Origin: Candidatus Latescibacterota bacterium | GTDB lineage: Bacteria > Latescibacterota > UBA2968 > SICM01 | NCBI GenBank assembly: GCA_965217865.1 | Contig: CBDCJO010000002.1 | Span: forward strand, 2,304,001 to 2,368,000 | Reading direction: 5' to 3' | DNA length: 64,000 nucleotides | Part shown: positions 28,038 to 52,973 of the stretch, piece after piece | How the letters are laid out: each line of letters starts with the position of its first letter | How positions within the stretch are numbered: position 1 is the first letter of the stretch | Notes under the pieces: generated by a model | Told to the model about the DNA's origin: nothing | Databases searched by the model: none | Seen by the model: the letters and a program-made list of their open reading frames with translations, nothing else | Translations under genes and position numbers: made by a program

Positions 28038-28093
28038 TCATTCCGACTTCGGATAATTGTACTTCTCCCCGGGCGGCGGCACCTCAAGCCTAG

Positions 28094-29615
28094 CAGCCTG
28101 TTGAAAAAGTGCGTTTATGCCAAGATGACTGTTGTCTTTCCTTGTGGTTTGGTCCTATGATATATCAGGTTCAAACTGAGAAGGGAGGACGAGCAAATGG
28201 CAATGGGAAAACGAGGCAGAGACAGGAAAACCTGTTCATCGCATCGAACACTTTGGTGAAATCTCCGGGTCATCCGTTCTACGAGAAGCTGAATCAGGTA
28301 TTGGGGGCGAACGGCTTCGACGAGTTCGTCGAGGGGCTTTGCCAGCGGTATTACGCTCCTCATATGGGTCGCAAGGGCATTCCGCCCGGGGTTTATTTTC
28401 GGATGCTTTTGATTGGGTATTTCGAGGGACTTGATTCGGAACGTGGGATCGAATGGCGTGTATCTGACTCGCTGACGTTGCGCCGGTTTTTGGGGTATGC
28501 CCTTGACGAACAGACCCCGGATCATTCCAGCCTGTCTCGCATCCGGCATCGGCTTCCCTTGGAAGTTCACGAAGCGGTTTTCAAGTGGATCCTGAGGGTC
28601 TTGTGCAAAGCGGGTCTGGTGAAGGGGAAGACGTTGGGCGTGGATGCTACGACACTGGAGGCCAACGCCGCGATGCGCAGCATTGTACGCCGTGACACGG
28701 GTGAAGGCTACCAGGCATTCCTTGAGAATCTGGCCAAGGCCTCGGGCATTGAAACGCCTACCCGCGAGGACTTGTCCAAGATCGATAAGAAGCGACCGAA
28801 GAAGGGATCGAACCAGGACTGGGAGCACCCGCACGACCCGGATGCCAAGATCGCTAAGATGAAGGACGGTCGCACGCACATGGCGCACAAGGTGGAGCAC
28901 GCGGTGGATCTGGACACCAATGCCATTGTGGCAGTGGCGTTGTCGGGAGCAGATGAAGGAGATACCGAGTCGTTGCCCTGGACGCTGCTCGAGGCGCAGC
29001 TCAATCTCAAGCAGGTCGCGAAGGACGAAAAAGCTGCCAAACGTTTGCACAGACAGCGTATACGGGAGGTGGTTGCGGACAAAGGATATCATAGCAACGA
29101 TGTATTGACCAGTCTGAAGCAAGGCGGCATCCGGAGTTACATTTCAGAACCGGATCGGGGACGCCGCAAGTGGAACGGCCGACGAGATGAGCAGGCCGCG
29201 GTATATGCGAATCGACGCCGGATCAAGGGAGATCGCGGCAAGGCCTTGCGCCGAAGTCGTGCAGAACGGGTGGAAAGAACCATCGCTCACACATATGATA
29301 CCGGTGGCATGCGCAGGTTGCACTTGAGAGACCGCGGCAATATCCTCAAGCGTTTGCTGATCCACATCGGGGGCTGCAACCTGGCTCTGCTCATGCGCAA
29401 AGTGATGGGCGTAGGTACTCCGAAGGCCCTCCAGGACCTGGCCAAGGCCTTGCAGCGTCTACTGCTCGTCCTACAATCACGTTTGCTGCCCTCGGTCACC
29501 TTTTTAACCTCTTATCAGCGTCTCCTGCTCAATCTCCTTACCTTGATTTATCCGACCCGCACTCCAGGCGTCTTTTCCGTTTATGTGCGTTGAAAGGTAG
29601 TTCTTCAACGGGCTG
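28094..29615 (+). mobile_element. IS1182/IS5-like insertion sequence
   Basis: TIR CAGCCTGTTGAAAAAGT vs CAGCCCGTTGAAGAACT (14/17); CTAG TSD at 28090..28093 and 29616..29619. Confidence 0.9.
28197..29593 (+). CDS. DDE transposase (DUF772-like N-terminus + DDE); RBS-linked start is out of frame by one base
   Basis: GRKGIPPGVYFRMLL, TPDHSSLSRIR, GVDATTLEANA, ADKGY, VERTIAH; GGAGG precedes ATG at 28197. Confidence 0.88.
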
Positions 29616-30894
29616 CTAGGCCCGTACACGCCCCGGTAACTCCGTGTCCAACGGCTTCCTCCCACAAACACCCAGTCCCTGCTATCATCGTCATACTTCT
29701 TGGCCTGAAAAGGAGTGAACAGCGTACCGTCGGAACACTCCACCGTGTTGACCGTGCACAGGCCGTCGGAGACGGGAATGTCGTCGCGGAGCACCTACTT
29801 CCTCACTCCAGGTCTTGCCGTGGTCAGAGGTGAAACGCGCGCGCACACCGTAGGGCTGCGCAAACCGCCTCTGGTAGGAGCATACTATCGTTCCATCGGC
29901 CAATGCTGTCGGCCAGGGATGCTTGGCGCGAATCGGTGTCTGTTGCGGCTCAGACCAGCTCCTGCCTCCGTCCGAAGACGATATGCAATAGGCAAAGTTG
30001 GCCAGCTCCGTGCGCAGGATGACGAACATGCTGCCGTCGCCATTGATGATTGGAAAAGTCTCGTTGAAGCCTTGCTGGGCCGGCGACTTCTTGCCGTCGG
30101 CCGCGCGGACCGCTTCCCACGTCTCGCCGGCGTCGTCGGATCGTACGCAGTAGACGCTCCAGCGCCCATGGCCGTAACTGTGGAGGCGGCCCTCCACCGT
30201 CGCGGAATGATCCTCCTTTGCGGAGATGCGTTCCTCCGGGGTACAGCCATAGGCGAAGTAGACTAGGGAGCCATCCTCCAGCAGTCGCAACGGGCCGCGT
30301 GCTACGAAGTGCGCGAAGAAGGGCAACTGCTCGTAGATGTCCCGCTTCTCCCAGGTCTTGCCGCCGTCCGTTGATCGCTTCTGCCACATGTCATAGATGA
30401 TGGCGCAGAAGTTCTGCCCGGATCCCGCTTCTCCCCGGTTGCCTGGGCCGGCGGCCTCCTTCCCGCCCAGGTCCCACACATGATACCCTCCTTCTCCAGC
30501 CGCTTCACCTCCGTCCGCGGGTACCGGACATAGCCGCTGCCGCCCACCTCGATGATGGTGCCACCGGGCATCGTTACGCGATTGTGGCTCGGCCCCGGCC
30601 ACGGCTGGTCGGTGATCTGCCAGGTCAGCCCTTGGTCCTCCGAGACGAGCACGATGCTGCTGGCCACGAACCACCCGGCGTCACTGGTCTGACTGGCATC
30701 AAAACTGATGCTCACAGTCATCCATATTTTGTCCTGCTCATCGAGGTGGAGCAGCCCCGCGCTCACGTTCTCGTACTGCGGGCTGCTCAGGATGTCGACG
30801 TCAATTTTCCAGGGCTTTGATGAATCCGGCACAAAAACCTCCAATCGTCAATTTGCCCAGGTTCGATTCGGTTCCCGATCCCCGCCCTTCACGC

Positions 30895-32106
30895 TCATCT
30901 TGGATAGTTGTACTTCTCCCCGGGCGGAGGAACCTCCAGCTTCGGACCGTACGGGCCCCGGTAACTCCGTGTCCAACGGCTGCCTCCCACGAAGTACCAC
31001 TCCCGGCCCTCATCGTCATACTTCTTCGCCCCGAACGCCGTAAACAGTGTCCCATCCGACAACTCCACCGTGTTTGGCTCGGCAACACGTCCCCCTTTGC
31101 TCGGAGCTGGAATGTCATCACGTATCACCACTTCCTCGCTCCAGGTCTTCCCCATGTCCGACGTGAATCTAGCTCGCACCCCGTACGGTTGAGCAAATCG
31201 CCTCGGATACGAGCACACCACCGTCCCGTCTCTCAAGGCCGTCGGAATCGGATGTTTCCCTCGAATCGGGGTCTGAACTGGCTCAGACCAGCTACTGCCT
31301 CCGTCTGGAGACCATACAGAAAACGCAGGTTCGCCCAGAGTCGTTCGCAGCATCACGAAGATGTTCCCATCCCCCTGGATTATCGGAAAGGTTTCGGTAA
31401 ACCCTGCGCTGGAACAGGAATGCCGCCCGTCCGCCATCAGGACAAGATCCCAGGTGGTGCCATTATCAGTACTTCGTAGGATATAGGTGCTGGACCGGCC
31501 ACTATTGTAGCTGGATCGTAACCCCTCCTGTTTCTCGAGGTGCCTGTCTTCCACCCCATACCCGTACGCAAGGAAGATCAACGTGCCGTCGTCCAGCAAT
31601 CTCAATGGACCCCGGGCGGCGAAGTGCGCAAAAAATGGAAGCTGATCGCCAATCGATCGCTCCTCCCAGATCTGCCCCCCATCCCTGGAAACCTTCACAT
31701 TTGCGCCATCGAGAACCGCACAATAGCCTTGTTTTTCACCGAGGTCCCAAACGTAGTAGCCCTCGGCCTCGAGACGCTCGACCTCGGTGGGGGGGTACCG
31801 AGTCCAGCCCCTCCCCCCCATCTCGATCATCGTGCCATCTGGAAGGACAACACGGGTGCGGGATGGGGCAGGGCTCGGACGATCGGTGATCTGCCAGGTC
31901 ACCCCCCCGTCCTCCGACAGCAGGACGATCACGGTCTCCAACGCAGAAAAGGCATCCTCACTCTGACTTTCATCGAAGCAAATCCACACAGGCAGCCAGA
32001 GTCGGTCCTCCGCGTCACAATACACATGGTTGTTGCCCAAACTTTCGTACTGCGGGCTGCGCAGGATGTCCACATCCCATTTCCACGGCTTTGACGGATC
32101 CAGCAT
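30895..32106 (-). CDS. Asp-box (sialidase-like) beta-propeller paralog B, intact
   Basis: Five Asp boxes: SEDGGVTW, SRDGGQIW, STDNGTTW, SPDGGSSW, TSDMGKTW. Confidence 0.88.
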   Translation of the reverse strand: MLDPSKPWKWDVDILRSPQYESLGNNHVYCDAEDRLWLPVWICFDESQSEDAFSALETVIVLLSEDGGVTWQITDRPSPAPSRTRVVLPDGTMIEMGGRGWTRYPPTEVERLEAEGYYVWDLGEKQGYCAVLDGANVKVSRDGGQIWEERSIGDQLPFFAHFAARGPLRLLDDGTLIFLAYGYGVEDRHLEKQEGLRSSYNSGRSSTYILRSTDNGTTWDLVLMADGRHSCSSAGFTETFPIIQGDGNIFVMLRTTLGEPAFSVWSPDGGSSWSEPVQTPIRGKHPIPTALRDGTVVCSYPRRFAQPYGVRARFTSDMGKTWSEEVVIRDDIPAPSKGGRVAEPNTVELSDGTLFTAFGAKKYDDEGREWYFVGGSRWTRSYRGPYGPKLEVPPPGEKYNYPR

Positions 32107-32151
32107 AAGGATGCCCCCAGCGGTCAGTTATTCAGCACTAATTCGGTTACA

Positions 32152-32386
32152 TTTCCTTCCATACCCCATACTCTCCCACACGCTTTTCTTTCCCCGACCC
32201 TGACTTCCGACTTCCGGCCTCTGACACCTGACATTGCATTTGGTTTTCTTCTGACTTCTGTATTCTGTATTCTGGGGAGGATGGGTGGAAGGGTCTTACT
32301 TGCTGCTGCTTTTCCCGTTTCACCTCTCACGATTGACGTTTGACGGCTCTTTCGACCCCCGACCTCTGACCCCTGGCCCCCTTTTT
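32152..32386. repeat. Intergenic repeat mosaic
   Basis: catacc, ctgactt/ccgactt, (tattctg)n, tctcacg/tttgacg, ccgacct. Confidence 0.9.
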
Positions 32387-33600
32387 TCAATCCGACTTCG
32401 GATAGTTATACTTCTCCCCCGGGGCCGGCACCTCCAGCTTCGGACCGTAAGGTCTCCTGTAGCTCTTCGTCCACCGGCTCCCCCCCGAAAACACCCATGC
32501 CCTCCCTTCATCGTCGTAATTCTTCGCCTGAAACGCAGTGAAAAGGGTCCCATCGGCCAGCTCCAGAGTATTGGCCTCGCACAGACCGTCCGATTCGGGT
32601 ACGCAATCACGGATGACCACCTCGTCGCTCCAGGTTTTGCCCATGTCCGACGTGAACCTTGCCCGCACACCGTGAGGCTGGGCAAACCGCCTTTGATAAG
32701 AGCAGATAATCGTCCCATCTCTCAAAACCGTCGGTCGGGGATGCTTGGCCCGAATCGGGGACTGAACGGGCTCAGACCAGGTTTTCCCGCCGTCTGAAGA
32801 CGATACCGAATACGCAGGCTCGCCCAGCCACGTGCGCAGCATGACAAATATAGTGCCGTCCCCGTTGATAATCGGAAAGGTTTCGGTAAACCCGGCCTCG
32901 GAACACGAATGTCGTCCGTCCGCCATCTGGACCAGGTCCCAGTTGGCCCCATTGTCAGCACTCCGCAAGATATAGGTGCTGGCTCGGCCGCTATGATAGC
33001 TTGAGCGCAACCCCTCCTGCTTTTCGGGATGCCTGTCGTCCTTATCATACCCGTACGCGATGAATATCAACGTTCCGTCGTCCAGCAATTCCAAGGGGCC
33101 CCGGGCAACGAAGTACGCAAAGAAAGGAAGCTGGTCGCGAATCGACCGATCTTCCCACGTCAGACCACCATCCCTTGAGATCTTCACGATTAGATCATTG
33201 GTATGGGATGGCACAGTAGTCATGCTCTTCTCCAAGGTCCCAGACGTAATAGCCCTCGCCCTCGAGTCGCTCGATCTCATTGCGAGGGTAACGCTCATAA
33301 CCGGGGCCCCACATTTCGAGGTGCGTCCCGTCTGAAAGAACCACTCCGCCATAAGAAGACCCAGGCCACGGGCGGTCTGTGATCTGCCAGGTCAGCCCCC
33401 CCGTCCTCCGACATCAGGATGATCGAGGTTTCCACCCCCCACCAGGCATCAGTGGTCTGGCTTGCATCGAAAGAGATCGTCACAGGAAGCCATAACCTGT
33501 CCTCCTCATCGCAATACAGCAGGCCCTGAATTATGTTCTCGTACTGCGGGCTGCGCAGGATGTCCACATCGATTTTCCACGACTTTGACGGATCCAGCAT
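32387..33600 (-). CDS. Asp-box propeller paralog C, two frameshifts
   Basis: MLDPSKSWKID start; extra base in a C7 run at ~33399 and an indel at ~33205; conserved C-terminus. Confidence 0.8.
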
Positions 33601-33619
33601 AAAAATCCCCTAGAGTTTG

Positions 33620-33839
33620 GAGTTTTCATTGCATTTGTATTTTCGTCCCCTGACCTCCGACCCCCCTGACTTCATTGGATATTCGAAAACCTCAGGACTT
33701 TCTTGTGGCTATATAGATCTCTTCGATATTGAATCTTCAATTCCGACTGTCCCCTGCCTTTGCATTCCTTGCCACTGCAACGTGCTACTGCTACTGTGCT
33801 TTTCCCTGACCCCTGGCCCCTGACTTCCGATCCCCGTCT
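33620..33839. repeat. Intergenic repeat mosaic
   Basis: ctgacct-ccgaccc, tcttcRa, ctgcta, ctgaccc/ctgactt blocks. Confidence 0.85.
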
Positions 33840-34499
33840 TCAACCCGACTTCGGATAGTTATACTTCTCGCCCCTCGGCGGAACAGCCAGCTTCGGACCG
33901 TACGGCCCCCGATAACTCCGAGTCCACCGACTGCCCCTGTCGTCCTTACCATACCCGTATGCAATGAAGATCAACGTCCCGTCATCCAACAAACTCAATG
34001 GCCCCCGGGAAACGAAGTGAGCGAAGAAAGGAAGCTGGTCGCGGATCGACCGCTCCTCCCAGGTCTGCCCTCCATCCCTGGAGACCTTCACCAATACCTC
34101 ATTGATATATGCGCAGTAGTCATGTTCTTCCCCAAGGTCCCAGACCATATAACCCTCGGCCTCGAGCCGCTCGATCTCGGTCCGGGGCATTCGGATCCAG
34201 CCCGTACCGCCCATCTCGACTATTGTGCCATCCGACAGAACCACATGGTTATGGGAGGGCGCAGGCCACGGGCGATCCGTGATTTCCCAGGTCAGCCCCC
34301 CATCCTCCGACAGCAGGACGATCGAGGTCTGCACCGCAGTCCATGCATCAGTGTCCCGACTGGCATCGAAAGAAATATCCACAGGAAGCCAAAGCCCGTC
34401 CTCCTCATCGCAATGTAGCAGACCCTGGCTGACGCTCTCGTACTGCGGACTGCGCAGGATGTCCACATCGATTTTCCACGGTTTTGACGGATCCAGCAT
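33840..34499 (-). pseudogene. Asp-box propeller paralog D with a large in-frame internal deletion
   Basis: 219 aa vs ~400 aa; junction AYGYGKDDR|GSRWTRSYRGPYGPKL. Confidence 0.8.
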
Positions 34500-34554
34500 A
34501 AAAACCTCCCATGGCCAGTCTGCTCAGCTCCGATTCTGTTTACCACTCTTGGTA

Positions 34555-34652
34555 TTCCCCGACATCTGACCCTGCCTTTGCTTTTCCTGCTACTGCCACT
34601 GCTACTGCCTCTTGCCGTCTCACGTTTGACGTTTGACGTTTTCTCAATCTTC
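34555..34652. repeat. Intergenic repeat mosaic
   Basis: ccgacat-ctgaccc, (ctgcta/ctgcca)x4, tctcacg(tttgacg)x2, tcaatcttca. Confidence 0.88.
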
Positions 34653-34872
34653 ATCGGCGAACCAAGATCACCTTCACCAAATCTCAAGTCAAGTACAATC
34701 GGAACTCAACGATCCTTCAGCGCTTTGGAATTGTTTTTTGCCCGCATTTGTGTACATTGAGGCCGGTGATTTCGTTTCCTCTGAGCGACTCGTGTCGCTG
34801 GGGAGGGAAGAAAATCCGGAATCGCATCACCTGCGTCGAGGAACCGCCGGATAGATTGGGAGGACAGGACGA

Positions 34873-35721: not shown

Positions 35722-35734
35722 AAAAGTCCCGACT

Positions 35735-36646
35735 TCACGAACTGGAAAGCAAACCGACCTGTTCCATGGTCGAGCGTATGCGCTCGAGGTCCTCGTCCGT
35801 GACCGACAATTGCGGCGGTCGCAAATAGCGGGAAGCCACGCCGTTAAGCTCCAATGCCGCGCGCCACACCGTTTGCCAACCTTTTTCGAGACCCGGGGCA
35901 GCAGTCAGATCCTTCATCGGCTTCTCCACCGCGACCGTTACCCGGGCTGCCTCGGCTGTGTCGCCGCGGCGCAGGGCCTTCCAGTAACTCGCACCGACGT
36001 GAGGCGCGAACGAAGTGGACCAGTCCATGAAGGCCGTGCATCCGAACGGCCATTCAAGAAGGTGCCGCCACAACCAGCCGCCTGTCATGACCTTCAGACG
36101 AGGGCTGTATTTCTGTAGCGTTTGGACGGCATACGCCTCCGGGCCGTCCTCTTTGAGGCAGCAGATGCCCGGTTTGTCGTCCAGCATGTCGAGCACCTGG
36201 TGCGCCGGAAATCCAACGAGCATAACAGGTATGATCCTAGACAGCGCAGCATAGTGCGCCGCCAGTCCCGCAGGGTCTGCGCCAAGTATTTCCGTTGTGG
36301 ACATAAGCAGATCCGCGCCCCATTCGACGCACTGCCGGGCGAAGGCCTCCGCCTGCCTTGTGGACCATAAACCTGTGGCCGCGACGGTCAGTGCCCGTCC
36401 TGCTGTACGGTCTATCGTGAAGCGCGTCAGTTGCGCGATCTCTGCTTCGGTCAAAAAGAAAAGCTGGCTGTCGCCGGCCGTCAGCAGGATCACTCCGCTG
36501 CCCCCGCCGATGGCGACCTCGATGATGTTGCCAACCCCGCCCCAATCGATATCGCCATTCTCCTTGAACGGTGTCGGAATCGACGACACCGGTCCTTCCA
36601 GCAGCCTTCGAATGTCATCTGGAGATTTGCGTTCTCGTCCGTTCAT
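35735..36646 (-). CDS. DHDPS/NAL-family class I aldolase
   Basis: IPTPFKENGDID, LKED Schiff-base Lys, LRPP. Confidence 0.85.
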   Translation of the reverse strand: MNGRERKSPDDIRRLLEGPVSSIPTPFKENGDIDWGGVGNIIEVAIGGGSGVILLTAGDSQLFFLTEAEIAQLTRFTIDRTAGRALTVAATGLWSTRQAEAFARQCVEWGADLLMSTTEILGADPAGLAAHYAALSRIIPVMLVGFPAHQVLDMLDDKPGICCLKEDGPEAYAVQTLQKYSPRLKVMTGGWLWRHLLEWPFGCTAFMDWSTSFAPHVGASYWKALRRGDTAEAARVTVAVEKPMKDLTAAPGLEKGWQTVWRAALELNGVASRYLRPPQLSVTDEDLERIRSTMEQVGLLSSS

Positions 36647-36670
36647 CTCCTGCAGCTCCTTCGGAGGTGG

Positions 36671-37615
36671 TCATGATGAGGCCCGACGTGCGCCCATTTC
36701 GACGAAAAAATCCGTGAACTTCTCCAACTCTGCGATCACATCCCGAGCTTGCTCTTCGGTCGCAGAGACCAGCGGAGGCCGCAGCTTCCGGCTTTCGGAA
36801 AACCCCATATACTGCATGTAGACCTGATTTCTCGCCAGGTTGTTCAGTTTCCCCAGGCTGACCTGCAGGCCATATTCACGCCGGTCGATAAAATCAATCA
36901 CTTCTTCCATGCGCTCCTCGTCAAGCAACTTGAGGAGGCTGAGCGCCGAACCTGGACTGAACTGGCCGAAAAGCTCGCCCTGCTGTGGGTGGTGATGAAA
37001 GAACACGTAGTTGCGCACCACCCCACCCCCGATGATGCAAAACCGATCGCCGAACCTCCGGATAAGATCCATTCGGCCTGGAATGCTGTTGAAATCCTCT
37101 TTCAGCCCGACGATATTCTCCTGCTCGGCCAGTGATTCGTAGTCCGTCATGCCCATGTTTGAAGTGCCGGGTTCTATCGAGGAAATGTTGTTCACGAGGA
37201 GGAGCGGGAACTCAGTCTGGCTCGCGACCGAACGCAGGAGGGCACGGTATTGGGCAGCGGGCCAACCGTCCGGCTCTGGCATCACGAAAACCGAATGGGC
37301 CGCCAGTTTCTGGATCTGCCGCACCACGTTCACAGTTGCCGAAGCGGAATCCAGATGGGTGCACCCTATGAATACCGCGCGGTCCCCGATCACATTGGCG
37401 ATGGTGCGTGTAACATCGATCAGTTCGGCTTCCGAGACGAACCCGATCTGGCTATATCCGTGAGTCAGGCAGGTATTGGTCATCCCCGCATCCAGTATCC
37501 ATGCCACGTACCGCTCGATGCCCGCGTGGTCAATCGAAAGGTCTTCCCGATAGAGCATCGGAAGGGGCACAGTCGGCCCCTTGATCTTCTTCCGGAAATC
37601 TTCATATATACTCAC
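36671..37615 (-). CDS. DHDPS/NAL-family class I aldolase
   Basis: YREDLSID, NIVGLKED, LRPPL. Confidence 0.85.
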   Translation of the reverse strand: MSIYEDFRKKIKGPTVPLPMLYREDLSIDHAGIERYVAWILDAGMTNTCLTHGYSQIGFVSEAELIDVTRTIANVIGDRAVFIGCTHLDSASATVNVVRQIQKLAAHSVFVMPEPDGWPAAQYRALLRSVASQTEFPLLLVNNISSIEPGTSNMGMTDYESLAEQENIVGLKEDFNSIPGRMDLIRRFGDRFCIIGGGVVRNYVFFHHHPQQGELFGQFSPGSALSLLKLLDEERMEEVIDFIDRREYGLQVSLGKLNNLARNQVYMQYMGFSESRKLRPPLVSATEEQARDVIAELEKFTDFFVEMGARRASS

Positions 37616-37973
37616 TTCTTAAATCCTCCCACAAGCCAATCCCTGGCGCATCAGTTCGGTCTAATCCACACTTCGTTTTTACTGTTCTTAGTTCCAGCAA
37701 GGACACGTCGAATTTCCAGTCCAACATCCATCTTTTTATGTTCCTTTCTCCAGGCCTGACTCAGCCTCGACACGACAACCCGTGTCACGCCTCCAATCAT
37801 AGGAAGTATATAGGGCTTTTTCTACAAGGTCAATTATTAATCGACAGGCGCTGGATGTTCGCTGCCGGCCTCTTCAGTCACTCCGACACACCCACCGGCT
37901 CGCCGATTCTTAACACGTGGCGCGACACCGAATCGCTCAACGCTACTCTGCACGCGTGGTAGTTCACCGTCAT

Positions 37974-42921: not shown

Positions 42922-44016
42922 ATGATCGAGGTTGTAGCCACCGGACTCGTCTATCGCAACCCAAAGTCGTTCATCAAATCGATCCATGCCTGGCACCCCA
43001 CGCTCGTACCCCTCGGCGATGGGGAAATCCTGGCCGGCTTCGACCTGGCCGAGGCCATCTCCGCCACAAACTACCGATCGTATGTTTCCCGCTCCACCGA
43101 CCACGGCGAAACCTGGAGCGATCCGGTCAGACTCGCCCCTGGCCACACCGATGTTACGGACTTCATCCGCCTCAGCCGGCTCTCAGACGGCACGATCATC
43201 GGCGTGGGGGTTCGCAAGGAGCCGGATGAAGAGACCCAGGGGTGGAACCCCGAAACCTATGGGTGCCGAGAGGGAGAGTGGTTCACGATCCGGAGCAGCG
43301 ATAAAGGAGTGACCTGGAGCGATCCGGCTGTGTTCGAGCCGACGTTCACCGGGCAGCCTTACGAGCTGTGTCACGCCATCGTCGAGGTGAGTGATGGCCG
43401 GCTGCTGTTGCCGACCGGATTGGTGCGCACCTGGGAGGGTGACGCGCCGCACGGGCTCATGACCATCGCCATGGTCTCGCACGATCAAGGCGCGACCTGG
43501 CCGGATTCCATCGAGCTGTTCAAAGACCCCGAAGGTGAGGTCCTCTACCACGAAGTGAGTCTGATAGAGCTGCCGGGCGGCGGGTTGCTGACTGTGGCGT
43601 GGCCATTCAACCCCTCGGTGGGGCAGACCGTTCTTAAGGTGCCGTTTGCGGTGGCGCCCGACGGCAAACAGTTCACGGTGCGCGGATCGACGGAGATACC
43701 CGGCGAGACGACCAAACTCGTCAGTCTCGGTGACAATCGCGTGCTGGCCCTCCTGCGGTGTACGGACAAACCCGGGTTGTGGGCGTACGTGGCGAGGTTG
43801 GAGGGGAATCAGTGGATCAACGAAGCCGAAGCGCCCGTGTGGCAAGGGTCCGAGTCCAGGATGTTCGGCGAGACAGCCGCGGCAGCCGAACTGGCCGCCC
43901 TGCACTTCGGTTTTCCAAATATGATCCGCCTGCCCGACGGCGACGTTCTCGGGGCCTTCTGGTGTCGCGAGGACTGCATCCACAATATCCGCTGGTTGCG
44001 TATCCGGGTGGACTGA
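42922..44016 (+). CDS. BNR/Asp-box sialidase-like protein
   Basis: STDHGETW, SSDKGVTW, SHDQGATW; FGFP at the position of GYP. Confidence 0.82.
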   Translation: MIEVVATGLVYRNPKSFIKSIHAWHPTLVPLGDGEILAGFDLAEAISATNYRSYVSRSTDHGETWSDPVRLAPGHTDVTDFIRLSRLSDGTIIGVGVRKEPDEETQGWNPETYGCREGEWFTIRSSDKGVTWSDPAVFEPTFTGQPYELCHAIVEVSDGRLLLPTGLVRTWEGDAPHGLMTIAMVSHDQGATWPDSIELFKDPEGEVLYHEVSLIELPGGGLLTVAWPFNPSVGQTVLKVPFAVAPDGKQFTVRGSTEIPGETTKLVSLGDNRVLALLRCTDKPGLWAYVARLEGNQWINEAEAPVWQGSESRMFGETAAAAELAALHFGFPNMIRLPDGDVLGAFWCREDCIHNIRWLRIRVD

Positions 44017-44062
44017 GGTTTCGAGAGGTGGGTAATAAGGTGTGATGGACGGAACAGTCTAG

Positions 44063-44251
44063 CACCAAAGCGGCTCGCGCTACGGCAGGGTGCAGGACCT
44101 GGTCAATACCGTCCAGCTGGTCGCGGAAGGGAAAATAAAGTCCATCATTCCAGACCTGTTTCCCCTCGAGGAGGCAAACGAGGCGATGGCTTCCCTGCGC
44201 GCCGGTAAGGTGTTGGGGCGAACGGTCCTCCTGACGGAGGCGGGTTGGTAG
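44063..44251 (+). pseudogene. C-terminal remnant of a zinc-type alcohol dehydrogenase (not in the ORF track)
   Basis: GSRYGRVQDLVNTVQLVAEGKIKSIIPDLFPLEEANEAMASLRAGKVLGRTVL. Confidence 0.75.
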
Positions 44252-44378
44252 GCTACATGAGTTCATTCACCCACGGCCAAGGGGATCTGGTGACCCATCA
44301 TCTGCTTGACGCCTTTTTGCCGGGTTGCCCTGCGATGTCGGATGGTGTGCCGTCCCGAGAGGCCCTGAGGGAGGTGAC

Positions 44379-45305
44379 ATGAGCGCTTACGATGATTTTC
44401 GACGAAAGATCGCGGGGCCGATGGCGCCGCTGCCGATCTTCTACAAGGACGACCTCAGCGTCGACTACGACGGCATCGGCAAATACACGGCGTGGCTGGT
44501 CCAGGGCGGGATCAGGAACATGTGCCTGACCTACAGCTACAGCCGGATCGCCTTCGTGACCCAGGCCGAGCTGATCGAGGTGACGCGCACGATCGCGCGA
44601 GTCGTGGGGGACCGTGCGGTCTTCATCGGCTGCACACGGATGGAATCCGCTGAGGAAGCCGTCGAATCCGTGCGGCAAATCCGCGAGGCCGGGGCCCACG
44701 CCGCGTTCGTCATGCCGCAGATGGAATGGCTGTCCGGGACGCTCTGTCGGAACTTCCTGCGCCACGTGGCCGCAGCGACCGACGTTCCCCTGCTATTCGT
44801 CAGTCTTCCGACGCCTGGGGATCCGAGCAAACCGAACTTGAGTGCCGACGACTACGAGGTGTTGCTGGAGCACGAGAACATCGTGGGAGTCAAGGAAGAC
44901 TTTAACGACATCCCCTACCGCATGGCGCTCATCCGCAGATACGGTCAGCGTCTCTGTATTATCGGAGGCGGGGTGCTGCGCAACTACCTGTTCGTGCACC
45001 GGTATCCACAGCAGGGAGAGTTGGCCGGGCACTTCAGTCCTCGGGCGTCCGGGCGCTTCGTGCAGCTGCTCGATGAGGGCTGTCTGGACGAGGCCATCAC
45101 CCTGATCGAGCAGCGCGATGTGGCCGTCAACGATTTCCCCCAGGGGCTGGACTGGCAGTCGAAAAACCAGGTCTACATGAAGGGCCTGGGGTTCGCCGAG
45201 AGCGTGCGGATGCGTCCCCCGCTCGTGGCGGCCACTGGCGACCAGGTCCGTGACGTGATCAAGCGGATGCGCAAGTACCCCACTGTCTTCGAAATGCCTT
45301 CCTGA
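44379..45305 (+). CDS. DHDPS/NAL-family aldolase, close paralog of 36671..37615
   Basis: MSAYDDFRRKIAGP vs MSIYEDFRKKIKGP; NIVGVKEDFN; GGAGG RBS. Confidence 0.85.
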   Translation: MSAYDDFRRKIAGPMAPLPIFYKDDLSVDYDGIGKYTAWLVQGGIRNMCLTYSYSRIAFVTQAELIEVTRTIARVVGDRAVFIGCTRMESAEEAVESVRQIREAGAHAAFVMPQMEWLSGTLCRNFLRHVAAATDVPLLFVSLPTPGDPSKPNLSADDYEVLLEHENIVGVKEDFNDIPYRMALIRRYGQRLCIIGGGVLRNYLFVHRYPQQGELAGHFSPRASGRFVQLLDEGCLDEAITLIEQRDVAVNDFPQGLDWQSKNQVYMKGLGFAESVRMRPPLVAATGDQVRDVIKRMRKYPTVFEMPS

Positions 45306-45356
45306 ATCCGGTCCTGAAGGCCCAACCGCTGAGTTGTTATCACTGCGAGCCAACTT

Positions 45357-46889
45357 TTGAGCACCCGACCGAACATCCTTCTGATCCTCACCGACCAGCA
45401 CGCGCCGAAGGTGGCCGGGTTCGCCGGGGACCCGGATGTACGCACGCAGAACCTTGACGCCCTGGCCCGGGGTTCGGTGCAGTTCCAGCAGGCGATCTGT
45501 CCTTCCCCGTGCTGCACGCCATCACGCATGTGCATGCTGACCGGCAAAGACGTCGAGCATTGTGCCGCTTGGGCCAACCACTGGATCATCTTTCCGGAGC
45601 ACCTCACCTGGCCGCAGCATTTCGCCGATAACGGCTACACCACCTGCCTCGTCGGCAAAATGCACTTCGGCGGGCGGGACCAGATGCAGGGCTTCACGCA
45701 TCGACCCTACGGTGACCTGCGGCACGGATTGGGTCACCAGCCCGATCCCCTGTCCATGTTTCCGGGTTACCACCACGTGGAAAGCGCTGGGGTCACGGAA
45801 ATACCTGAAAGTCTCTTACAGGACGTCGTGGTCACGGGAGAGACACTGTCGTTCCTTCGTGAGCATCAGGATCAAAATCCGGACAAGCCGTGGTTCGTGT
45901 GTGCCGGGTACTCGCGGCCTCATTCGCCTCTGACGGCGCCGGGTCGGTACATTCGACGTTACCGCGACCGATTGCCCAAAGTTGAAGAACCGAAGCCGGA
46001 CCGGCTCGAGCCCTTCGCCCGGAATCTTTATGACCGGATCTCCGGTGCGTTAAACGCAGAGCAGAGACAGCGAGGCCTGGAAGCCTATTACGCGTGTGTG
46101 GACTTCGTGGATGACTGCATCGGGGAGCTACTGGAAGGTCTGGAAGAGAGCGGCCTGCTTGACAACACGATCGTGATCTACACCAGTGACCACGGCGAAA
46201 TGGCGGGTGTGCACGGGTTGTGGCAGAAGGGGGTGTATTACGAGCCGTCGGTAGGAGTTCCCCTGCTCATGCAGGGGCCGGGGATCGCGCCGGGTCACCT
46301 CGACGTGAACCGGGTGATCTCGTTGATCGACCTGTACCCGACCACAAGTGCGCTGTGCGGTCTGCCGGTTCCGGAGGGCCTGGATGGTGTGGATTTCAGC
46401 CGTGTTTTGCGCGATCCCGCCTCAGCGGATGCTCCCCGGCCTTATGCCATCTCACAGATGTTTGCCCAGGGATCGCGTGTCGCGTCCATGCAGGTCCCGA
46501 TCGACACACCGTATCGCGCGTGGCGGGCCATCCGGACCGAAGGGTGGAAATATATCGACGTGCAGGGCGGTGACCCCCTGTTGTTCGATTTGCGGAACGA
46601 CCCGGGCGAATCGACGAACCTGGCAGTAGGCCATCCGGACCACGCCGCCCGCTGTCAGGAGCTGCGCGCGTTCCTGTTCGAAGGTTTCAGCTGGAAGCAA
46701 GCCATGCGTCAACTGGAAGACGACCGGCGACGGATTGGGGAACACCTTTCGGGACTCAAACCGACCGTGCCCAATCAATACATGCTTGCGGATGGACGGA
46801 CCTTTGATGCCGAGGCTGGGCTGTATGGAGCCCGATGGCTGGTCGAACCCGACGCGACCGGCGGCATCATCCCACAGCAGTTTGGGTAA
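45357..46889 (+). CDS. Formylglycine-dependent (S1) sulfatase, choline-sulfatase-like
   Basis: RPNILLILTDQH, CTPSR, GKMH, YTSDHG. Confidence 0.92.
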   Translation: MSTRPNILLILTDQHAPKVAGFAGDPDVRTQNLDALARGSVQFQQAICPSPCCTPSRMCMLTGKDVEHCAAWANHWIIFPEHLTWPQHFADNGYTTCLVGKMHFGGRDQMQGFTHRPYGDLRHGLGHQPDPLSMFPGYHHVESAGVTEIPESLLQDVVVTGETLSFLREHQDQNPDKPWFVCAGYSRPHSPLTAPGRYIRRYRDRLPKVEEPKPDRLEPFARNLYDRISGALNAEQRQRGLEAYYACVDFVDDCIGELLEGLEESGLLDNTIVIYTSDHGEMAGVHGLWQKGVYYEPSVGVPLLMQGPGIAPGHLDVNRVISLIDLYPTTSALCGLPVPEGLDGVDFSRVLRDPASADAPRPYAISQMFAQGSRVASMQVPIDTPYRAWRAIRTEGWKYIDVQGGDPLLFDLRNDPGESTNLAVGHPDHAARCQELRAFLFEGFSWKQAMRQLEDDRRRIGEHLSGLKPTVPNQYMLADGRTFDAEAGLYGARWLVEPDATGGIIPQQFG

Positions 46890-47069
46890 TAACCGCATGA
46901 GTTTGGGTCCACGATCCTTCTTCGAAAACCTTGTACACCCCTTTTTCTACTATCCTGCAAAGCTAACCCTCGCACATTGAACCCGCATCATCCACACTCC
47001 GGTCCTCATTGAATGGCACTTTGAAATAAACCAGGCGATGCTTGGATGCCTATCCTCTTTTTCAGTGGT

Positions 47070-48383
47070 CTACCGCTGGGGGCTTTCCTCGACGGCGTCT
47101 GTTCCGGATTCCGGGGTAGTTCGCCGGGGGAAGACCCCGGGGGGATAGTCCAATTGCTGTCCCCGGGGCCGTACGAAGTCGGGGCTGTACCGGCTTCCCA
47201 CGATGTAGGTGTGAAACCACGGGTGAAGGATGAGGGTTTCTCCGTACTCCACCTGATCCTCGGGTTTCAAACCGGCGATCTTGCTGATTGCGCAGACCGT
47301 GAACAGGCTGTTGTCGGAAAGCTGCACGGACTGGGGATACCCCACCCCTTTGGGCAGGGATTCATCCCTGATGATTTTCTCGTTTTCGACGTCCCAGCTC
47401 CGGCCTTCGTCGTGACTGATGCATGCCCGCACACCTGTGGGGTGGCGGCGATGGGCGTAGGTGGCCATGATGTCGCCGTTCATGAGGTTGATCAGCTTTG
47501 CGGGAAATCCCCAGAAAGGCACCTGTTCCGGAACGCTCCAGGTGAGACCTCCGTCCTCGGAGGTGCTCTGCCATAGGTTCTGGTCCGCTGCAAACTGGGG
47601 TCGTGCAACGGCCAGGATCCGGCCGGAGGGCATGGCCAGCAGGCTGGTTTCGTTGTATCCGATCTCGTCCGCGGGGTCGAAGAACACCGGCGTGAAGGTC
47701 CAGGTCCTTCCGCTGTCCGTGGAACGGGTTGACCAGACCCGGGTCGTTCGCTCGGTTCGGTTCAACCGTCCGTACACGGCTCCCAGGATGGCCCCGTCGG
47801 GAAGGAGAAGCCCGGATCCGAAAAATCCTACCATGTGGGCAGCCATAGGAAAATCCCCGTGCGGCGCATTATCTATCGGGCTGCTCTTCCAGGTTTTTCC
47901 GTCGTCCTCTGAACGCCAGGTCACGATCTCCGGGTAAACGGCCACGATTCCCCCAAACGCATCATCGACCTGCCATCCTTGAGCCTCGAGTTCAGCCCTT
48001 TTCTCTGCCTTGTACAGGCGATAGGCCATCAGTCCATCGGGCTTGTGCAGATGCCCCAGTCCCTCGCCCTCCAGATGCTCCCGAAGAGAATCCCCGCCCA
48101 GCGTCTGCCCTCCGATGTAGACTCGTGTGCCATCAGGGGCTCTGACCCCGGGGGGAGGAAGCTGATCTTCCGATTCCTCCCACGAGATCCCCCCATCCTC
48201 TGACTGAACCTGCGTTGTCCTGTGATCCTCCACGAAGAAGTCATCGTAGAGTCCGGCCTCCGATTCCGAACTGATGCTCACGATCAGCCGGTCGTCATCC
48301 GCCAGATAAATCACCGCGCTGTTGCTTGAATAACCGGTAAGATCCAACAACGTCATGTCGAATTTCCACGGACCAGCAGCCAT
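47070..48383 (-). CDS. Asp-box sialidase-like protein, distant relative of the paralog array
   Basis: PWKFD N-terminus, five Asp boxes, YNETS, VGYPQSVQLSD. Confidence 0.82.
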   Translation of the reverse strand: MAAGPWKFDMTLLDLTGYSSNSAVIYLADDDRLIVSISSESEAGLYDDFFVEDHRTTQVQSEDGGISWEESEDQLPPPGVRAPDGTRVYIGGQTLGGDSLREHLEGEGLGHLHKPDGLMAYRLYKAEKRAELEAQGWQVDDAFGGIVAVYPEIVTWRSEDDGKTWKSSPIDNAPHGDFPMAAHMVGFFGSGLLLPDGAILGAVYGRLNRTERTTRVWSTRSTDSGRTWTFTPVFFDPADEIGYNETSLLAMPSGRILAVARPQFAADQNLWQSTSEDGGLTWSVPEQVPFWGFPAKLINLMNGDIMATYAHRRHPTGVRACISHDEGRSWDVENEKIIRDESLPKGVGYPQSVQLSDNSLFTVCAISKIAGLKPEDQVEYGETLILHPWFHTYIVGSRYSPDFVRPRGQQLDYPPGVFPRRTTPESGTDAVEESPQR

Positions 48384-48477
48384 CTTAGTACACTCCTTTA
48401 TTCCATTCCAGACTCAGGTTCGGCACGACAACGGTGTCTTCGAGTCTGCGAAAGAGGATTTGGGTTGTTCATAGCAA

Positions 48478-48534
48478 CTTGCACTTTTCATGTTGAAATT
48501 TGCAATTTTCTCCCCTGACCTCCGGCCTCTTCCT
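48478..48534. repeat. Short intergenic repeat mosaic
   Basis: cttgcac/tttgcaa units and ctgacct-ccggcct. Confidence 0.6.
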
Positions 48535-49732
48535 TTATCCTGACCTCGGATAATTATACTTCTCCCCAGGCTCCGGAACCTCCAGCTTCGGACCATATGT
48601 TCCCGTGTAACTCCTTGACCATCGACTGCCACCCGCGAACGGCCAGGGCCTCCCCTCATCGTCATACTTCGTGGCGCTATATGCAGTGAACAGCGTCCCG
48701 TCGGAAAGCTCCACGGTGTTGACCTCCGAAACACGTGCTATGGGAATGTCATCACGGATGATGACCTCCTCGCTCCAGGTTTTGCCCACGTCAGACGTGA
48801 ACCTTGCCCGCGCACCGTATGGCTCTGCAAACCGCCTCTGATAAGAACAGATAATGGTCCCATCCTGCAAGAGCGTCGGTCGCGGATGCTTGGCACGAAT
48901 TGGGGTCTGCACGGGCTCAGACCAGTTCCTCCCTCCGTCTGAAGACCATACAGAATACGCGAAGTTGCCCAGCTCAGTACGCAGCATGACGAATATGTTC
49001 CCGTCTCCGCGATGATCGGAAAAGTCTCCGTAAACCCGGCGTCTGAACACGAGTGTCGCCCGTCTGCCATTAGGATCAGGTCCCAGTTTACGCCCCTGTC
49101 GGAACTTAAAAGGACATAGGTGCTGGACCGCCCATCATAGTAATCAGAGTTTCCCCGTTTCTTGAGATACCTCTTGTCCGGGCCATACCCGTACGCGATG
49201 AAGATCAACGTCCCGTCTTCCAGCAATCTCAATGGACCCCGCGCCACGAGTGCGCGAAAAATGGAAGTTGATCACCAATCGATCGCTCTTCCCAGGTCTG
49301 ACCCCCATCCTTCGAAACCTTCATAAAAATTCCATCGATATACGCACAATAGTCGTGCACTTCACCGTGATCAAGGACCATATAACCCTCGGCTTTGAGA
49401 CGCCCGATCTCGGAGCGCGGGCAGCGAGTCCAGCCCGTACCGCCCATCTCGACCATCGTCTTGTCCGGCAGCACCACACCTCCGTGGGAAGGCGCTGGCC
49501 AGGGGCGATCCGTGATCTTCCAGGTCAACCCGCCGTCTTCGGACAGCAGTACCACAGATGTTTCCTGGGCTCTCCAGGCATCGGTGCTCTGACTGGCATC
49601 GAAACAGATGCTTACAGGCATCCATAGCCGGTCCTTTCCATCGCAATAGAGGAGACCCTGGTTCACTTCTTCATACTGGGGACTACACAGGATATCCACA
49701 TCCCATTTCCATGGCTTTGTTGGATCCAGCAT
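48535..49732 (-). CDS. Asp-box propeller paralog E, two 1-nt deletions
   Basis: Three ORFs join by restoring one base at ~49249 (FAH|FVARG) and ~49011 (PII|RGDG). Confidence 0.8.
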
Positions 49733-49754
49733 AAAAACACCCTAGGGTTTGGGG

Positions 49755-50323
49755 TTTTCATTGCAACTTGCACTTTGCTATTTCCCTCGCCTGATCCTGC
49801 CTTTGCTCTTCCTGCCATTGCTACTGCTTTTCCCGTTTCACGTCTCAAGTTTGACGTTTCACGTTTTTTCTTCCCCCTGACCTCCGACCACCATTTTCGT
49901 AGCCTGTTGCAGTTGCTTAACGCTCTCCTTCCGGAGAGAACCAGCCTGTATCTGCGCGGCCAGTTCCCGGCTGCCTCAAACCGTGTCTATCTGCTTCCTG
50001 GGAAAAGAGATACCGTTTGTACTCCGACGGGCATTTTATGAGCATTCGGTAGTGCGTCCAGGTCAATTTTGAACGCGCGTTCAAAATTGACCTGGACGGG
50101 TGAAACCGAAGAAATTCTTACAAATCCTCACGCTGGCCCCCGGCTTTTCACGTCCAGGTTAATTCTGCGCGCGCGCGCAGAATTGGAAAGCGATTTCGTT
50201 ACGTAACATACTGTAAATATTTATGATAAGTGAATTTATTGTCTCGGACTATAATAAGCCTGTTAGCTCATGCCTTGCCACTGCTACTGCATTTTCGTCC
50301 CCCTACCTCCCGAGCCTCGTTCT
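49755..50323. repeat. Intergenic repeat mosaic (49755..49897, 50269..50323) interrupted by a palindrome-bearing insert
   Basis: Standard repeat words on both sides of an unrelated ~360 bp segment. Confidence 0.75.
50055..50098. repeat. Perfect 44-bp palindrome; related 24-bp palindrome at 50161..50184
   Basis: cgtccaggtcaattttgaacgc|gcgttcaaaattgacctggacg; aattctgcgcgc|gcgcgcagaatt. Confidence 0.95.
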
Positions 50324-51547
50324 TCAATCCAACCTCGGATAATTATACTTCTCCCCGGCCTCTGGCACTTCCAGGTTCGGGCCGTATGGGCTCCGGTAGC
50401 TCCTCGTCCACCGACTCCCACCCAGAAACGGCCAATCCCTCCCCTCATCGTCGTACTTCTTGGCACCGAACGAAGTGAAAAGCGTCCCGTCCGACAGTTC
50501 CACTGTATTGATCCCACCCAGCCCGTCATCTACGGGGATACAGTCACGGATCACCACCTCGTCGCTCCAGGTTTTCCCCATATCCGAAGTGAACCTTGCA
50601 CGCACACCGTAGGGCGGAGCAAACCGCCTTTGATACGAGCAGGCTACCGTCCCGTCCCTCAAGGCCGTCGGTTCAGGATGCTTGGCACGGATCGGGGTCT
50701 GAGCCGGCTCAGACCAGGTCTTCCCTCCGTCGGAAGACCATACGGAATACGCGAAGTTGCTCAGCGACGTGTGCAGCATAACGAATATGTTCCCATCTCC
50801 TTGGACTATGGAGAAAGTCTCGGTAAACCCGGAGTCTGAACACGACTTTCGCCCATCCGCCATCAGGACCAAGTCCCAATTCGCACCGTCATCAGCACTC
50901 CGTAAGATATACGTGCTGGATCTGCCGCTATTGTAGTTGGAGCGCAACCCTTTCTGTCCCCATGGCCCCCCCTCTGCCGGATGCCTGTCTTCCTTCCCAT
51001 ACCCGTACGCGATGAAGATCAACGTCCCGTCGTCCAGCAAACGCAGCGGACCCCGGGCAACGAAGTGCGCGAAGAAAGGAAGCTGGTCGCGAATCGATCG
51101 CTCCTCCCAGGTCTGACCTTCATCCCGGGAAACCTTCACCAATACCTCATTGATGTACGCACAGTAGTCGTGTTCTTCCCCAAGGTCCCAAACCATATAA
51201 CCCTCGGCCTCGAGCCGTTCGATCTCGGTTCGGGGCAATCGCGTCCAGCCCGTACCCCCCATTTCGACCATCGTCTTGTCCGAAAGAACGACATGGCTGT
51301 GAGAAAGCCCCGGGCGAGGACGATCCGTGATCTGCCAGGTCAGCCCCCCGTCTTCCGAAAGCAGGACGATCGGTGTCTCTACCGAGGTCCAGGCGTCGGT
51401 GTCCTGACTGGCGTCGAAGCAGATGCTTACAGGCAGCCAGAGACGGTCCTGTTCTTCGCAATGGAGCGGCCCATGGCCCATGCCCTCGTACTGCGGGCTG
51501 CGCAGGATGTCTACATCCCATTTCCACGGCTTTGATGGATCCAGCAT
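50324..51547 (-). CDS. Asp-box propeller paralog F, intact
   Basis: MLDPSKPWKWD start after GGAGG; five Asp boxes; conserved C-terminus. Confidence 0.88.
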   Translation of the reverse strand: MLDPSKPWKWDVDILRSPQYEGMGHGPLHCEEQDRLWLPVSICFDASQDTDAWTSVETPIVLLSEDGGLTWQITDRPRPGLSHSHVVLSDKTMVEMGGTGWTRLPRTEIERLEAEGYMVWDLGEEHDYCAYINEVLVKVSRDEGQTWEERSIRDQLPFFAHFVARGPLRLLDDGTLIFIAYGYGKEDRHPAEGGPWGQKGLRSNYNSGRSSTYILRSADDGANWDLVLMADGRKSCSDSGFTETFSIVQGDGNIFVMLHTSLSNFAYSVWSSDGGKTWSEPAQTPIRAKHPEPTALRDGTVACSYQRRFAPPYGVRARFTSDMGKTWSDEVVIRDCIPVDDGLGGINTVELSDGTLFTSFGAKKYDDEGRDWPFLGGSRWTRSYRSPYGPNLEVPEAGEKYNYPRLD

Positions 51548-51636
51548 AAGATGCCCTCCAGTCGTCAGCTTATTTGGCACTGATACGGTTCACATTTCCT
51601 TCTGTTCTGACCCTGGCCGACTGAGTTGAATGTAAG

Positions 51637-51785
51637 TTTTCTTCTGTATTCTGTATTCCGGGGGGGATAGGTGGAAGGGGCATTCTTCCCCGTCTCACGG
51701 TTCACGGTTTTTCTTTTCCCTGACCCCCGACTTCTGACCTCTGGGTTTTCCCGACCCCTGGCACCTGACATCCGAGCCCTTTCCC
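51637..51785. repeat. Intergenic repeat mosaic
   Basis: (tattctg)n, tctcacg/ttcacg, ctgaccc-ccgactt-ctgacct. Confidence 0.85.
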
Positions 51786-52973
51786 TTACCCTCCTCTCGG
51801 GTAATTATACTTCTCCCCGGCCTCCGGCACTTCCAGCTTCGGACCATACGGTCCCTTATAGCTCCTTGTCCACCGGCTGCCACCCACAAACGGCCAACCC
51901 CTCGCTTCATCGTCGTATTTCTTGGCGTCGAACGAGGTGAACAAAGTCCTGTCCGACAGTTCCACCGTGTTGGGCTGATGAAGGCCGTCCGAGATCGGGA
52001 TGTCATCTCGGATGACGACCTCCCCGGTCCAGGTCTTGCCGTAATCAAGGGTAAACCTTGCCCGCACCCCGAAGGGCGGATCGAAGCGTCGCTGATAGGT
52101 ACACAGGACGGTCCCGTCCCGGAGGAGCGTCACCCTCGGGTGCTTTGCTCGCACGGGCGTCTCAAGCGGTTCGGTCCACGTCTGTCCCCCGTCCGAGGAC
52201 CACACGCTGTAAGCGAAGTGTCCCATCTGGGTGCGGAGCATGCAAAAGATCCTGCCATCCCCGTGCACGACGTGGTAATTCTCTCCGAACCCTCTCGCCG
52301 TAGGACCGAATCGTCCATCCGCAATCTGGATCAATTCCCACTTCCTTCCCCCATCCGTAGACCGCACACACCACGCATGGCTCAATCCTCCCAGTTCACT
52401 GGATTTGGACAATCCCTCCGGTTTATAGCCATATGCGAAATTGATGAGTGACCCGTCGTCGAGCATATGTAGAGCCTCCATCGAGAACCGGGCGAAAAAG
52501 GGCAGCTTCTCGTGGAGCCGATCTTCCTTCCATGTCTGTCCCCCATCCGTCGAATGCCTGACGACCATGCCATAATTGACGGCGCAATAATCGTGTTTCT
52601 CCCCCAGGTCCCATACGTAGTACCCTTCCGCCCTCAGCCGGTCGATCTCTGATCGGGGATATCGCTCCCAACCGTACGTGACAGTCTCTATGATTGTTCC
52701 GTCCGCCAGGACGCGACGGTTCTCCAGAGGCGGTCCGGGCCATGGATCGTCCGTGATCTCCCACGTGAAACCACCGTCCTTCGACAACAACAAAACATGC
52801 GTGGCCTGCGCGGCCCATGCATCCGTCGTCTCCGCTTCATCAAAACTGATCATAACGGGACTCCAGAGGAAGTCATTTTCGTCACAGTACAGGTTGCCCT
52901 GGCCCAGGGCTTCGTACTGTGGACTCCGCAGGATATCCACATCGATTTTCCACGACTTTGATGGATCCAACAT
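51786..52973 (-). CDS. Asp-box propeller paralog G, intact, more divergent
   Basis: MLDPSKSWKID start after GGAGG; Asp boxes; GGSRWTRSYKGPYGPKLEVP tail. Confidence 0.88.
   Translation of the reverse strand: MLDPSKSWKIDVDILRSPQYEALGQGNLYCDENDFLWSPVMISFDEAETTDAWAAQATHVLLLSKDGGFTWEITDDPWPGPPLENRRVLADGTIIETVTYGWERYPRSEIDRLRAEGYYVWDLGEKHDYCAVNYGMVVRHSTDGGQTWKEDRLHEKLPFFARFSMEALHMLDDGSLINFAYGYKPEGLSKSSELGGLSHAWCVRSTDGGRKWELIQIADGRFGPTARGFGENYHVVHGDGRIFCMLRTQMGHFAYSVWSSDGGQTWTEPLETPVRAKHPRVTLLRDGTVLCTYQRRFDPPFGVRARFTLDYGKTWTGEVVIRDDIPISDGLHQPNTVELSDRTLFTSFDAKKYDDEARGWPFVGGSRWTRSYKGPYGPKLEVPEAGEKYNYPRGG

Follow-up and report, generated by a model that had tools for sequence, protein, structure and literature searches.

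Organisation of the array and state of its copies

The stretch of DNA analysed here (the window) comprises 64,000 nucleotides of the contig CBDCJO010000002.1 of a Candidatus Latescibacterota bacterium (positions 2,304,001 to 2,368,000) and carries a tandem array of seven paralogous genes encoding Asp-box propellers, the copies A to G. A search of the window with the intact copies (tblastn) and DNA alignment place all seven on the minus strand in two clusters, A-D (28038..34499) and E-G (48535..52973), as had been proposed in a sequence-only reading of this DNA; the conserved end motifs and the four lists of variable motifs given there also match the sequence. Each copy consists of a single propeller of 395-408 amino acids, and the protein identity among the seven window paralogs is comprised between 56 and 84%. 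An intact eighth copy, H, is located on the same contig, 753 kb away (G000:C2:3109930-3111153). Within the interval G000:C2:3108449-3111153 (L181:8453-11154), it is preceded by another BNR propeller gene, of a type represented in the genome by two or more additional relatives. The family profile matches 48 six-frame open reading frames (ORFs), and the genome thus encodes many such propellers.

The intact copies are B, G and H, and only two of them lie in the window: B (30895..32106, minus strand, 403 amino acids) and G (51786..52973, minus strand, 395 amino acids). Copy F (50324..51547, minus strand) has an open frame of 407 amino acids in which His replaces the otherwise invariant Arg247. The four other window copies (A, C, D and E) are pseudogenes in the sequenced strain. 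The 5' part of copy A (29616..30832, minus strand) begins with GTG and contains two frameshifts, near 30486 and 29796, and an insertion of 42 nt; its last codons and stop (28038..28093, minus strand) are severed by an IS1182-like insertion sequence (IS) of 1,522 bp (28094..29615, plus strand), which is flanked on both sides by a duplicated CTAG and whose best NCBIfam match, IS1182, falls under the cut-off. The reading frame of copy C (32387..33600, minus strand) is shifted by +1 near 33400 and again near 33208, that of copy E (48535..49732, minus strand) by -1 near 49250 and again near 49011; other strains carry intact forms of both. Copy D (33840..34499, minus strand) has lost 564 nt in frame, which removes most of the region from blade 3 to blade 6; other strains possess full-length alleles, and a further strain (P0056) a differently broken one. 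The earlier mention of six full-length copies was therefore overstated, since the frame is open only in B, F and G.

The lesions of A, C and D are also present in contigs of the runs X1 and X2 (two studies, X1 being possibly the source sample) and those of E in X4. In the runs X8 and X12 copy C is open and D continues, and E is open in X9, X12 and part of X2; C, D and E are each represented by full-length alleles in the protein collection. The recurrence of the same lesions in X1, X2 and X4, together with the open forms in X8, X9 and X12, rules out sequencing or assembly errors; the lesions found in C, D and E are thus genuine and limited to certain strains. Which copies the array is losing therefore differs from strain to strain. 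The cover of copy A is low in X8 and X12, which is not a proof of its absence. Among the sequenced genome's own copies, no gene conversion tract survives the correction for 21 pairs (best P=0.008). Some strain alleles look mosaic: P0012 passes successively from D-like to C-like to E-like sequence, P0010 departs from F in blade 4, and P0020 also has this appearance.

A purine-rich stretch is found immediately 5' of the start codon of every copy. The copies begin at the conserved first strand and none displays a hydrophobic N-terminal leader, in agreement with the earlier statement that signal peptides are not evident and with the likely cytoplasmic location of the products.

Subfamily, distribution and phylogeny

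The homolog search detected 620 proteins, of which about 55 scored far above the others, and a profile search of 1.84 billion representatives recovered the same narrow core. This subfamily is small and uncharacterised. At the cut-off, B, F, G and the neighbouring propeller N (see below) match no NCBIfam family; the ESM Atlas, searched with the homologue P0016, returned only automatically named BNR_2 clusters; and literature searches, outside of which lay most subscription journals and CAZy itself, found no paper on the subfamily among the entries listed. A close member occurs in three of 41 genomes, namely the sequenced genome and the two that share its taxonomic family; in the other 38, no E-value was better than 1.3e-24. 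Among named loci, the closest ones, with 59-61% identity, come under the labels Latescibacterota, Gemmatimonas and Planctomycetota. At each of the 26 outside loci examined, a single copy was present in the stretch of DNA covered.

In a quick tree the subfamily forms one side of a branch with a support of 99. The copies are distributed among three subclades: G, distinct from B-F; A with H; and B, C, E and F together with strain alleles and the full-length D alleles. The array therefore combines older lineages with a local expansion. According to a hydrophobicity window, the N-termini of the 51 homologs comprise 29 that are signal-peptide-like, 18 that start at the mature end like the window copies and four that are unclear.

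Several divergent members have the length of their longest contig in common (23,461 for P0019, P0036, P0037/P0142 and P0144; 14,455 for P0024, P0039 and P0141/P0143), which suggests a second independent multi-copy cluster; it would belong to another subclade, and its members retain signal peptides. The relative P0165 (747 amino acids) contains two tandem propellers.

Predicted fold and pocket residues

The AlphaFold2 model of G (predicted local distance difference test 92.7) is a six-bladed Asp-box propeller, with Pfam matches to BNR/BNR_2. Its top fold match is Dfer_1899 (5hx0; Z 24.4, root-mean-square deviation (rmsd) 4.3, 327 aligned residues), in agreement with Foldseek, followed by the sialidases NanA (2vvz; Z 21.3, rmsd 4.5, 301 aligned) and NedA (1eur; Z 20.4, rmsd 5.1, 300 aligned). 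No GH181 chain appears among the best 50 matches listed from the wide fold search.

The alignment of the subfamily reveals that Glu231, Lys277, His278, Pro279 and Arg296 are conserved in all 51 members and that Asp51, Arg247 and Arg295 are conserved in 50 of 51; Asp51 and Glu231 persist down to about 45% identity. Glu231 and Arg247 align with the Glu and Arg of the solved GH33 chains 4bbw, 1eur and 4x47, and Arg296 was assigned as the third Arg through 5hx0 and the topology. Asp51 may be the counterpart of NedA Asp92, an equivalence based on spacing. Lys277-His278 open blade 5, with blade 4, which carries the Glu, on one side and blade 6, which carries the vacated Tyr site, on the other.

That site is position 333, which aligns with the Tyr of the GYP motif in 5hx0. 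Tyr is found there in 0/51 members, against 154/178 outgroup rows (the 178 of 372 aligned segments that span both positions), which also retain the Glu (172) and both Arg (172 and 170). The members have Glu (20), Gln (12), Asn (5), Gly (4) or other residues, Glu or Gln accounting for 32 of 51. The loss of Tyr therefore predates the array; it is a derived feature of the subfamily in general, most of whose loci are single-copy, and not of the array, for which the sequence-only reading had noted it. As noted there, the GYP Tyr is present in the neighbour N (as GVGYP) and in none of the copies. The site of the RIP Arg (positions 24-25) is variable as well, with Arg in 2/36 outside members at each position and in 0/8 copies.

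GH33 enzymes are described as relying for catalysis on an Arg triad together with an Asp and a Glu/Tyr pair (PMC6811678). With neither the RIP Arg nor the Tyr nucleophile, the retaining mechanism of GH33 is not available to the subfamily, and the earlier view that the copies are not ordinary GH33 sialidases is upheld. One could still imagine retaining sialidases that recruit a Tyr from another loop: the fold is GH33-like, databases name one member "sialidase family protein", and Tyr20 and Tyr293 are conserved in the subfamily. This is barely credible, as the RIP Arg and the blade-6 Tyr are both absent and Tyr293 is also found in Tyr-bearing outgroup proteins (151/178 outgroup rows), so that it is probably structural.

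The earlier note had left the choice between binders and enzymes open. The invariance of the acid, base and Arg residues speaks for enzymes. Non-catalytic binders of carbohydrates or metabolites (pseudo-enzymes) would explain why two canonical GH33 residues are missing family-wide and why copy F tolerates the loss of Arg247; they nevertheless appear quite improbable, given that Asp51 and Glu231 are invariant down to about 45% identity, that active propellers without the Tyr are already known and that the copies have neither an anchor nor an export signal.

A separate group of distant relatives (P0179, P0183, P0058, P0177, P0188, P0197, P0231 and P0289) is also devoid of the Tyr, with Gly at the Tyr site and an aromatic residue or His three places earlier, which suggests repeated loss of the nucleophile in the superfamily.

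Comparison with known families

The best fold and profile match of the copies is Dfer_1899 from Dyadobacter fermentans (5HX0) with its large group of GYP-bearing BNR_2 proteins, to which N belongs. Dfer_1899 shares with the copies the Glu, the LRT Arg, the HP motif and the pattern of Arg in blade 5; it differs from them by an identity of only about 21%, by the lack of an invariant Lys277 and by the GYP Tyr, this motif being present in N and absent in the copies. The GH33 exo-sialidases (Micromonospora viridifaciens NedA, pneumococcal NanA, Bacteroides BTSA) have in common with the copies the six-bladed Asp-box propeller, the Glu, two Arg and, judging by spacing, perhaps the Asp. The second and third Arg of the triad are kept in the subfamily (Arg247 in 50/51 and Arg296 in 51/51), whereas the RIP Arg and the Tyr nucleophile are missing from the copies, and the identity is 12-18%.

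Two inverting families also resemble the copies. GH181 (Akkermansia muciniphila Amuc_1547), which is active on the sialyl-T antigen, is devoid of the Tyr and of one Arg and has kept the Glu and two Arg, with the same spacing of 16 residues between Glu and Arg (E218/R234 in GH181, E231/R247 in the copies). The copies differ in that the GH181 C-terminal carbohydrate-binding module-like domain is absent and in that His-Gln at the Tyr site occurs only in G, while an invariant Gln preceded by His is reported to define GH181 (PMC10067855); the sequence match to GH181 is weak (profile E about 4e-7). The Tyr was likely lost independently in GH181 and in the subfamily. The second family, GH58, contains the phage endosialidases (K1F endoNF, phi92), which are also six-bladed (4hiz; Z 18.4, rmsd 4.4, 304 aligned); endoNF presumably lacks the Tyr. 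These proteins are phage tailspikes with a beta-helix stalk, endo-acting on polysialic acid, with 10% identity to the copies, which are single-domain (395 amino acids for G).

In the reports on GH181, a water molecule occupies the position of the Tyr oxygen and is held by the Glu and the Gln (PMC10067855, PMC12018670). GH58 is reported to be inverting, with His, Glu and Arg as key residues (PMC12632334), and Tyr mutants of a retaining sialidase are reported to invert too. From these three cases, the loss of the Tyr need not end catalysis. On the features tested, the subfamily lies outside GH33, GH181 and GH58 and likely works in the manner of the inverting ones.

A different chemistry also has to be weighed, in which the copies would be diverged enzymes acting as lyase, dehydratase or anomerase on an acidic sugar, with His278 or Lys277 as base. 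An invariant Lys-His-Pro stands beside the Glu and the Arg residues, propeller lyases and a dehydratase occur in the fold list (7esk, Z 18.3; 4a7k, Z 17.5; 5uam, Z 16.2), and cytoplasmic copies could act on free sugars. However, the top-ranked characterised folds are all sialidases, the Glu/Arg spacing fits GH33 and GH181, and 29/51 homologs have a signal-peptide-like N-terminus, as in glycan-degrading enzymes. We consider such chemistry improbable, although deserving serious attention.

Variable sites and selection

Positions were classed by blade topology and called variable when at least four residues occur among the seven copies A, B, C, E, F, G and H. Variable positions number 32/146 on the top face, 12/139 in strands, 8/75 at the bottom and 0/35 at the termini, which represents an enrichment of the top face over strands and bottom together (32/146 vs 20/214; Fisher P=0.0012). 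However, the top face also contains 52 invariant positions out of 146, and 20 of the 52 variable positions are found outside it, so that it does not qualify as a hypervariable face. A conserved bottom and a variable top are described as general to Asp-box propellers (PMC2716378). The sites listed as variable in the sequence-only reading (the listed sites) also vary across the 36 outside members (entropy 2.3 vs 1.4 bits; Spearman 0.49).

Codon models give an overall omega of 0.146. The sequence-only reading had named a lack of positive selection as counting against it, and none was detected (2dL=0 for both M1a/M2a and M7/M8), whereas selection was picked up in 12/12 simulations in which 15 sites had been set to omega 2-5. 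At the 15 listed sites omega is 0.50, about three times that of the remainder and below 1 (2dL 20.9). Between copies the synonymous divergence is 0.43-2.6 and omega 0.13-0.30; the copies have therefore long been kept under purifying selection.

After removal of fragments and duplicates, six strain alleles of B, five of C, six of G and five of H were compared. The listed sites are polymorphic in 3/60 site-by-orthogroup cells, against 12.2 expected from matched paralog diversity (P=0.0004), and the most variable of them in 2/44, against 36/164 at equally divergent sites (P=0.007), both P values being optimistic because the alleles are kin. Positions that differ between copies and are fixed within copies have the pattern of specificity-determining positions. 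From these alignments, the listed sites behave as stable, copy-specific pocket residues. The idea of diversified specificity is thus supported for a set of top-face loop positions, which behave like specificity determinants, and that of hypervariability is not.

Two readings of this variation were considered besides specificity. According to the first, the paralogs would be a hypervariable recognition repertoire engaged in an arms race. The enrichment of the top face and the mosaic-looking alleles P0012, P0020 and P0010 go in this direction, but positive selection and high allelic diversity at the variable sites, found in such repertoires, are both missing: no class with omega above 1 appears in spite of the power of the test, the sites are nearly fixed between strains, and no conversion tract is significant after correction for 21 pairs. 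This reading is largely refuted and very improbable. According to the second, constraint would merely be relaxed at the vacated catalytic positions of redundant duplicates in an IS-rich genome, with no functional panel. It fits the variation of the same sites in the outside members, the four broken copies out of seven, the different break of D in P0056 and the IS present at about 90 copies; we hold it to be unlikely, since polymorphism among alleles is lower at these sites than at others of equal divergence and the copies have undergone long purifying selection.

Proposed function

Taken together, we tentatively favour, with a confidence that stays a little short of even, the reading that the copies are hydrolases of the cytoplasm that cleave keto-acid sugars with inversion and have diverged in specificity, operating in the manner of GH181 and GH58 and belonging to neither. 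Keto-acid sugars are the most likely class of substrate. In this mechanism, Arg247, Arg295/296 and Lys277 would bind the carboxylate of the substrate, Glu231, aided by His278, would activate a water molecule in the space vacated by the Tyr, and Asp51 would act as the acid that protonates the leaving group. Direct attack of water on a terminal keto-acid sugar would then result in inversion. The variable residues map to both vacated catalytic positions (22-27 and 332-334) and to the residues that directly follow Asp51 (53-57) and Arg247 (249), where they would tune the fit of the sugar or of the aglycone, and each copy is predicted to favour a different substrate. The panel would have been assembled from three older lineages (G; A/H; B-F) and a local duplication of the B-F lineage, with copies being lost strain by strain in a birth-and-death process. 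The deacetylases, the sulfatase and the aldolase-like genes of the neighbourhood would process the released sugars. GH33-annotated genes are reported as enriched in sponge-associated genomes, with Latescibacteria among the glycosidase-rich lineages (PMC8163846). Two sponge metatranscriptome runs contained only 0.15-0.17 of the sequence words and thus provide no evidence on habitat or expression.

Several observations weigh against this reading. The closest structure, Dfer_1899, is itself of unknown function. The pocket residues were placed by blade topology and sequence alignment, not by distances; an alternative HMMER alignment to NedA is shifted by one blade; and Asp51, located 13 residues before the first Asp-box, was assigned as acid/base by spacing alone. 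Position 333 is not invariant, unlike Gln350 of GH181, being Thr in A and H and Gly in F. His278 coexists with the Tyr in some outgroup proteins (His in 23/178). The alleles showing fixation are related sequences, clustered at 90% identity, and not independent. Finally, crude ORF calling around 15 outside loci gave 122 ORFs, and none of the 89 scanned matches the DHDPS family, so that conservation of the aldolase-like context was not seen there.

A broader proposal, possible but doubtful, is that the subfamily represents an undescribed glycoside hydrolase family and a further independent route by which the retaining sialidase fold came to inverting catalysis, marked by an invariant Lys-His-Pro. 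The array would then be a natural collection of enzymes, shuffled by segments, that act on different rare keto-acid sugars, and about 15 pocket residues would be enough to read its specificity. Automatic annotation names such proteins sialidase or GH33, yet the mechanism of GH33 is out of reach for the subfamily, which, if active, would constitute a new inverting family. The paralogs offer a compact test of how the substrate of a propeller pocket changes, with eight natural variants, 56-84% identity and about 15 strain-stable sites, and their study would also open the large unstudied group of Dfer_1899. They are not a new kind of system, as panels of paralogs with a variable top face and inverting sialidases without the Tyr both have precedents.

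Genomic neighbourhood and insertion sequences

The window contains three aldolase-like genes, two deacetylases, one sulfatase and one amidase-like gene. A PIG-L-family de-N-acetylase (53121..53987, minus strand) is located immediately upstream of G on the same strand. It is preceded by a multi-frame gene (54042..55285, minus strand), two scanned pieces of which have no Pfam match and which, from a motif, looks by eye like a Gfo/Idh/MocA oxidoreductase. Two aldolase-like genes of the DHDPS/NanA/KdgD superfamily (35735..37615, minus strand) are found upstream of D, and a third (44325..45305, plus strand) is followed by the sulfatase (45357..46889, plus strand), between the two clusters of copies; all three aldolase-like genes score below the curated NCBIfam cut-offs. 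The third one and the sulfatase adjoin a distant BNR propeller (42922..44016, plus strand). The neighbour N (47070..48383, minus strand), another distant BNR propeller with about 26% identity to the copies, keeps the Glu, two Arg and the GYP Tyr and belongs to the outgroup. Directly downstream of copy A lies a further BNR propeller gene (26662..27898, minus strand), split in two frames. Across the 15 outside loci no conserved operon was found, DUF1501-type neighbours recurring at 8/15. The scan of 46500..56500 for promoters and terminators gave counts no higher than chance.

The IS1182-like element has about 90 near-full-length copies in the genome, at CTAG-like insertion sites; the one in copy A lacks 4 nt near 28216 that are present in other copies. 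The IS1380 family is also expanded, with 26 near-identical copies (38467..39969 in the window). Degenerate, strand-biased repeats occupy the intergenic regions 27954..28038, 32214..32371, 34544..34645, 49771..49889, 51641..51741 and 53072..53122; with 31-143 blastn matches per spacer genome-wide, they are possible substrates of unequal crossing-over.

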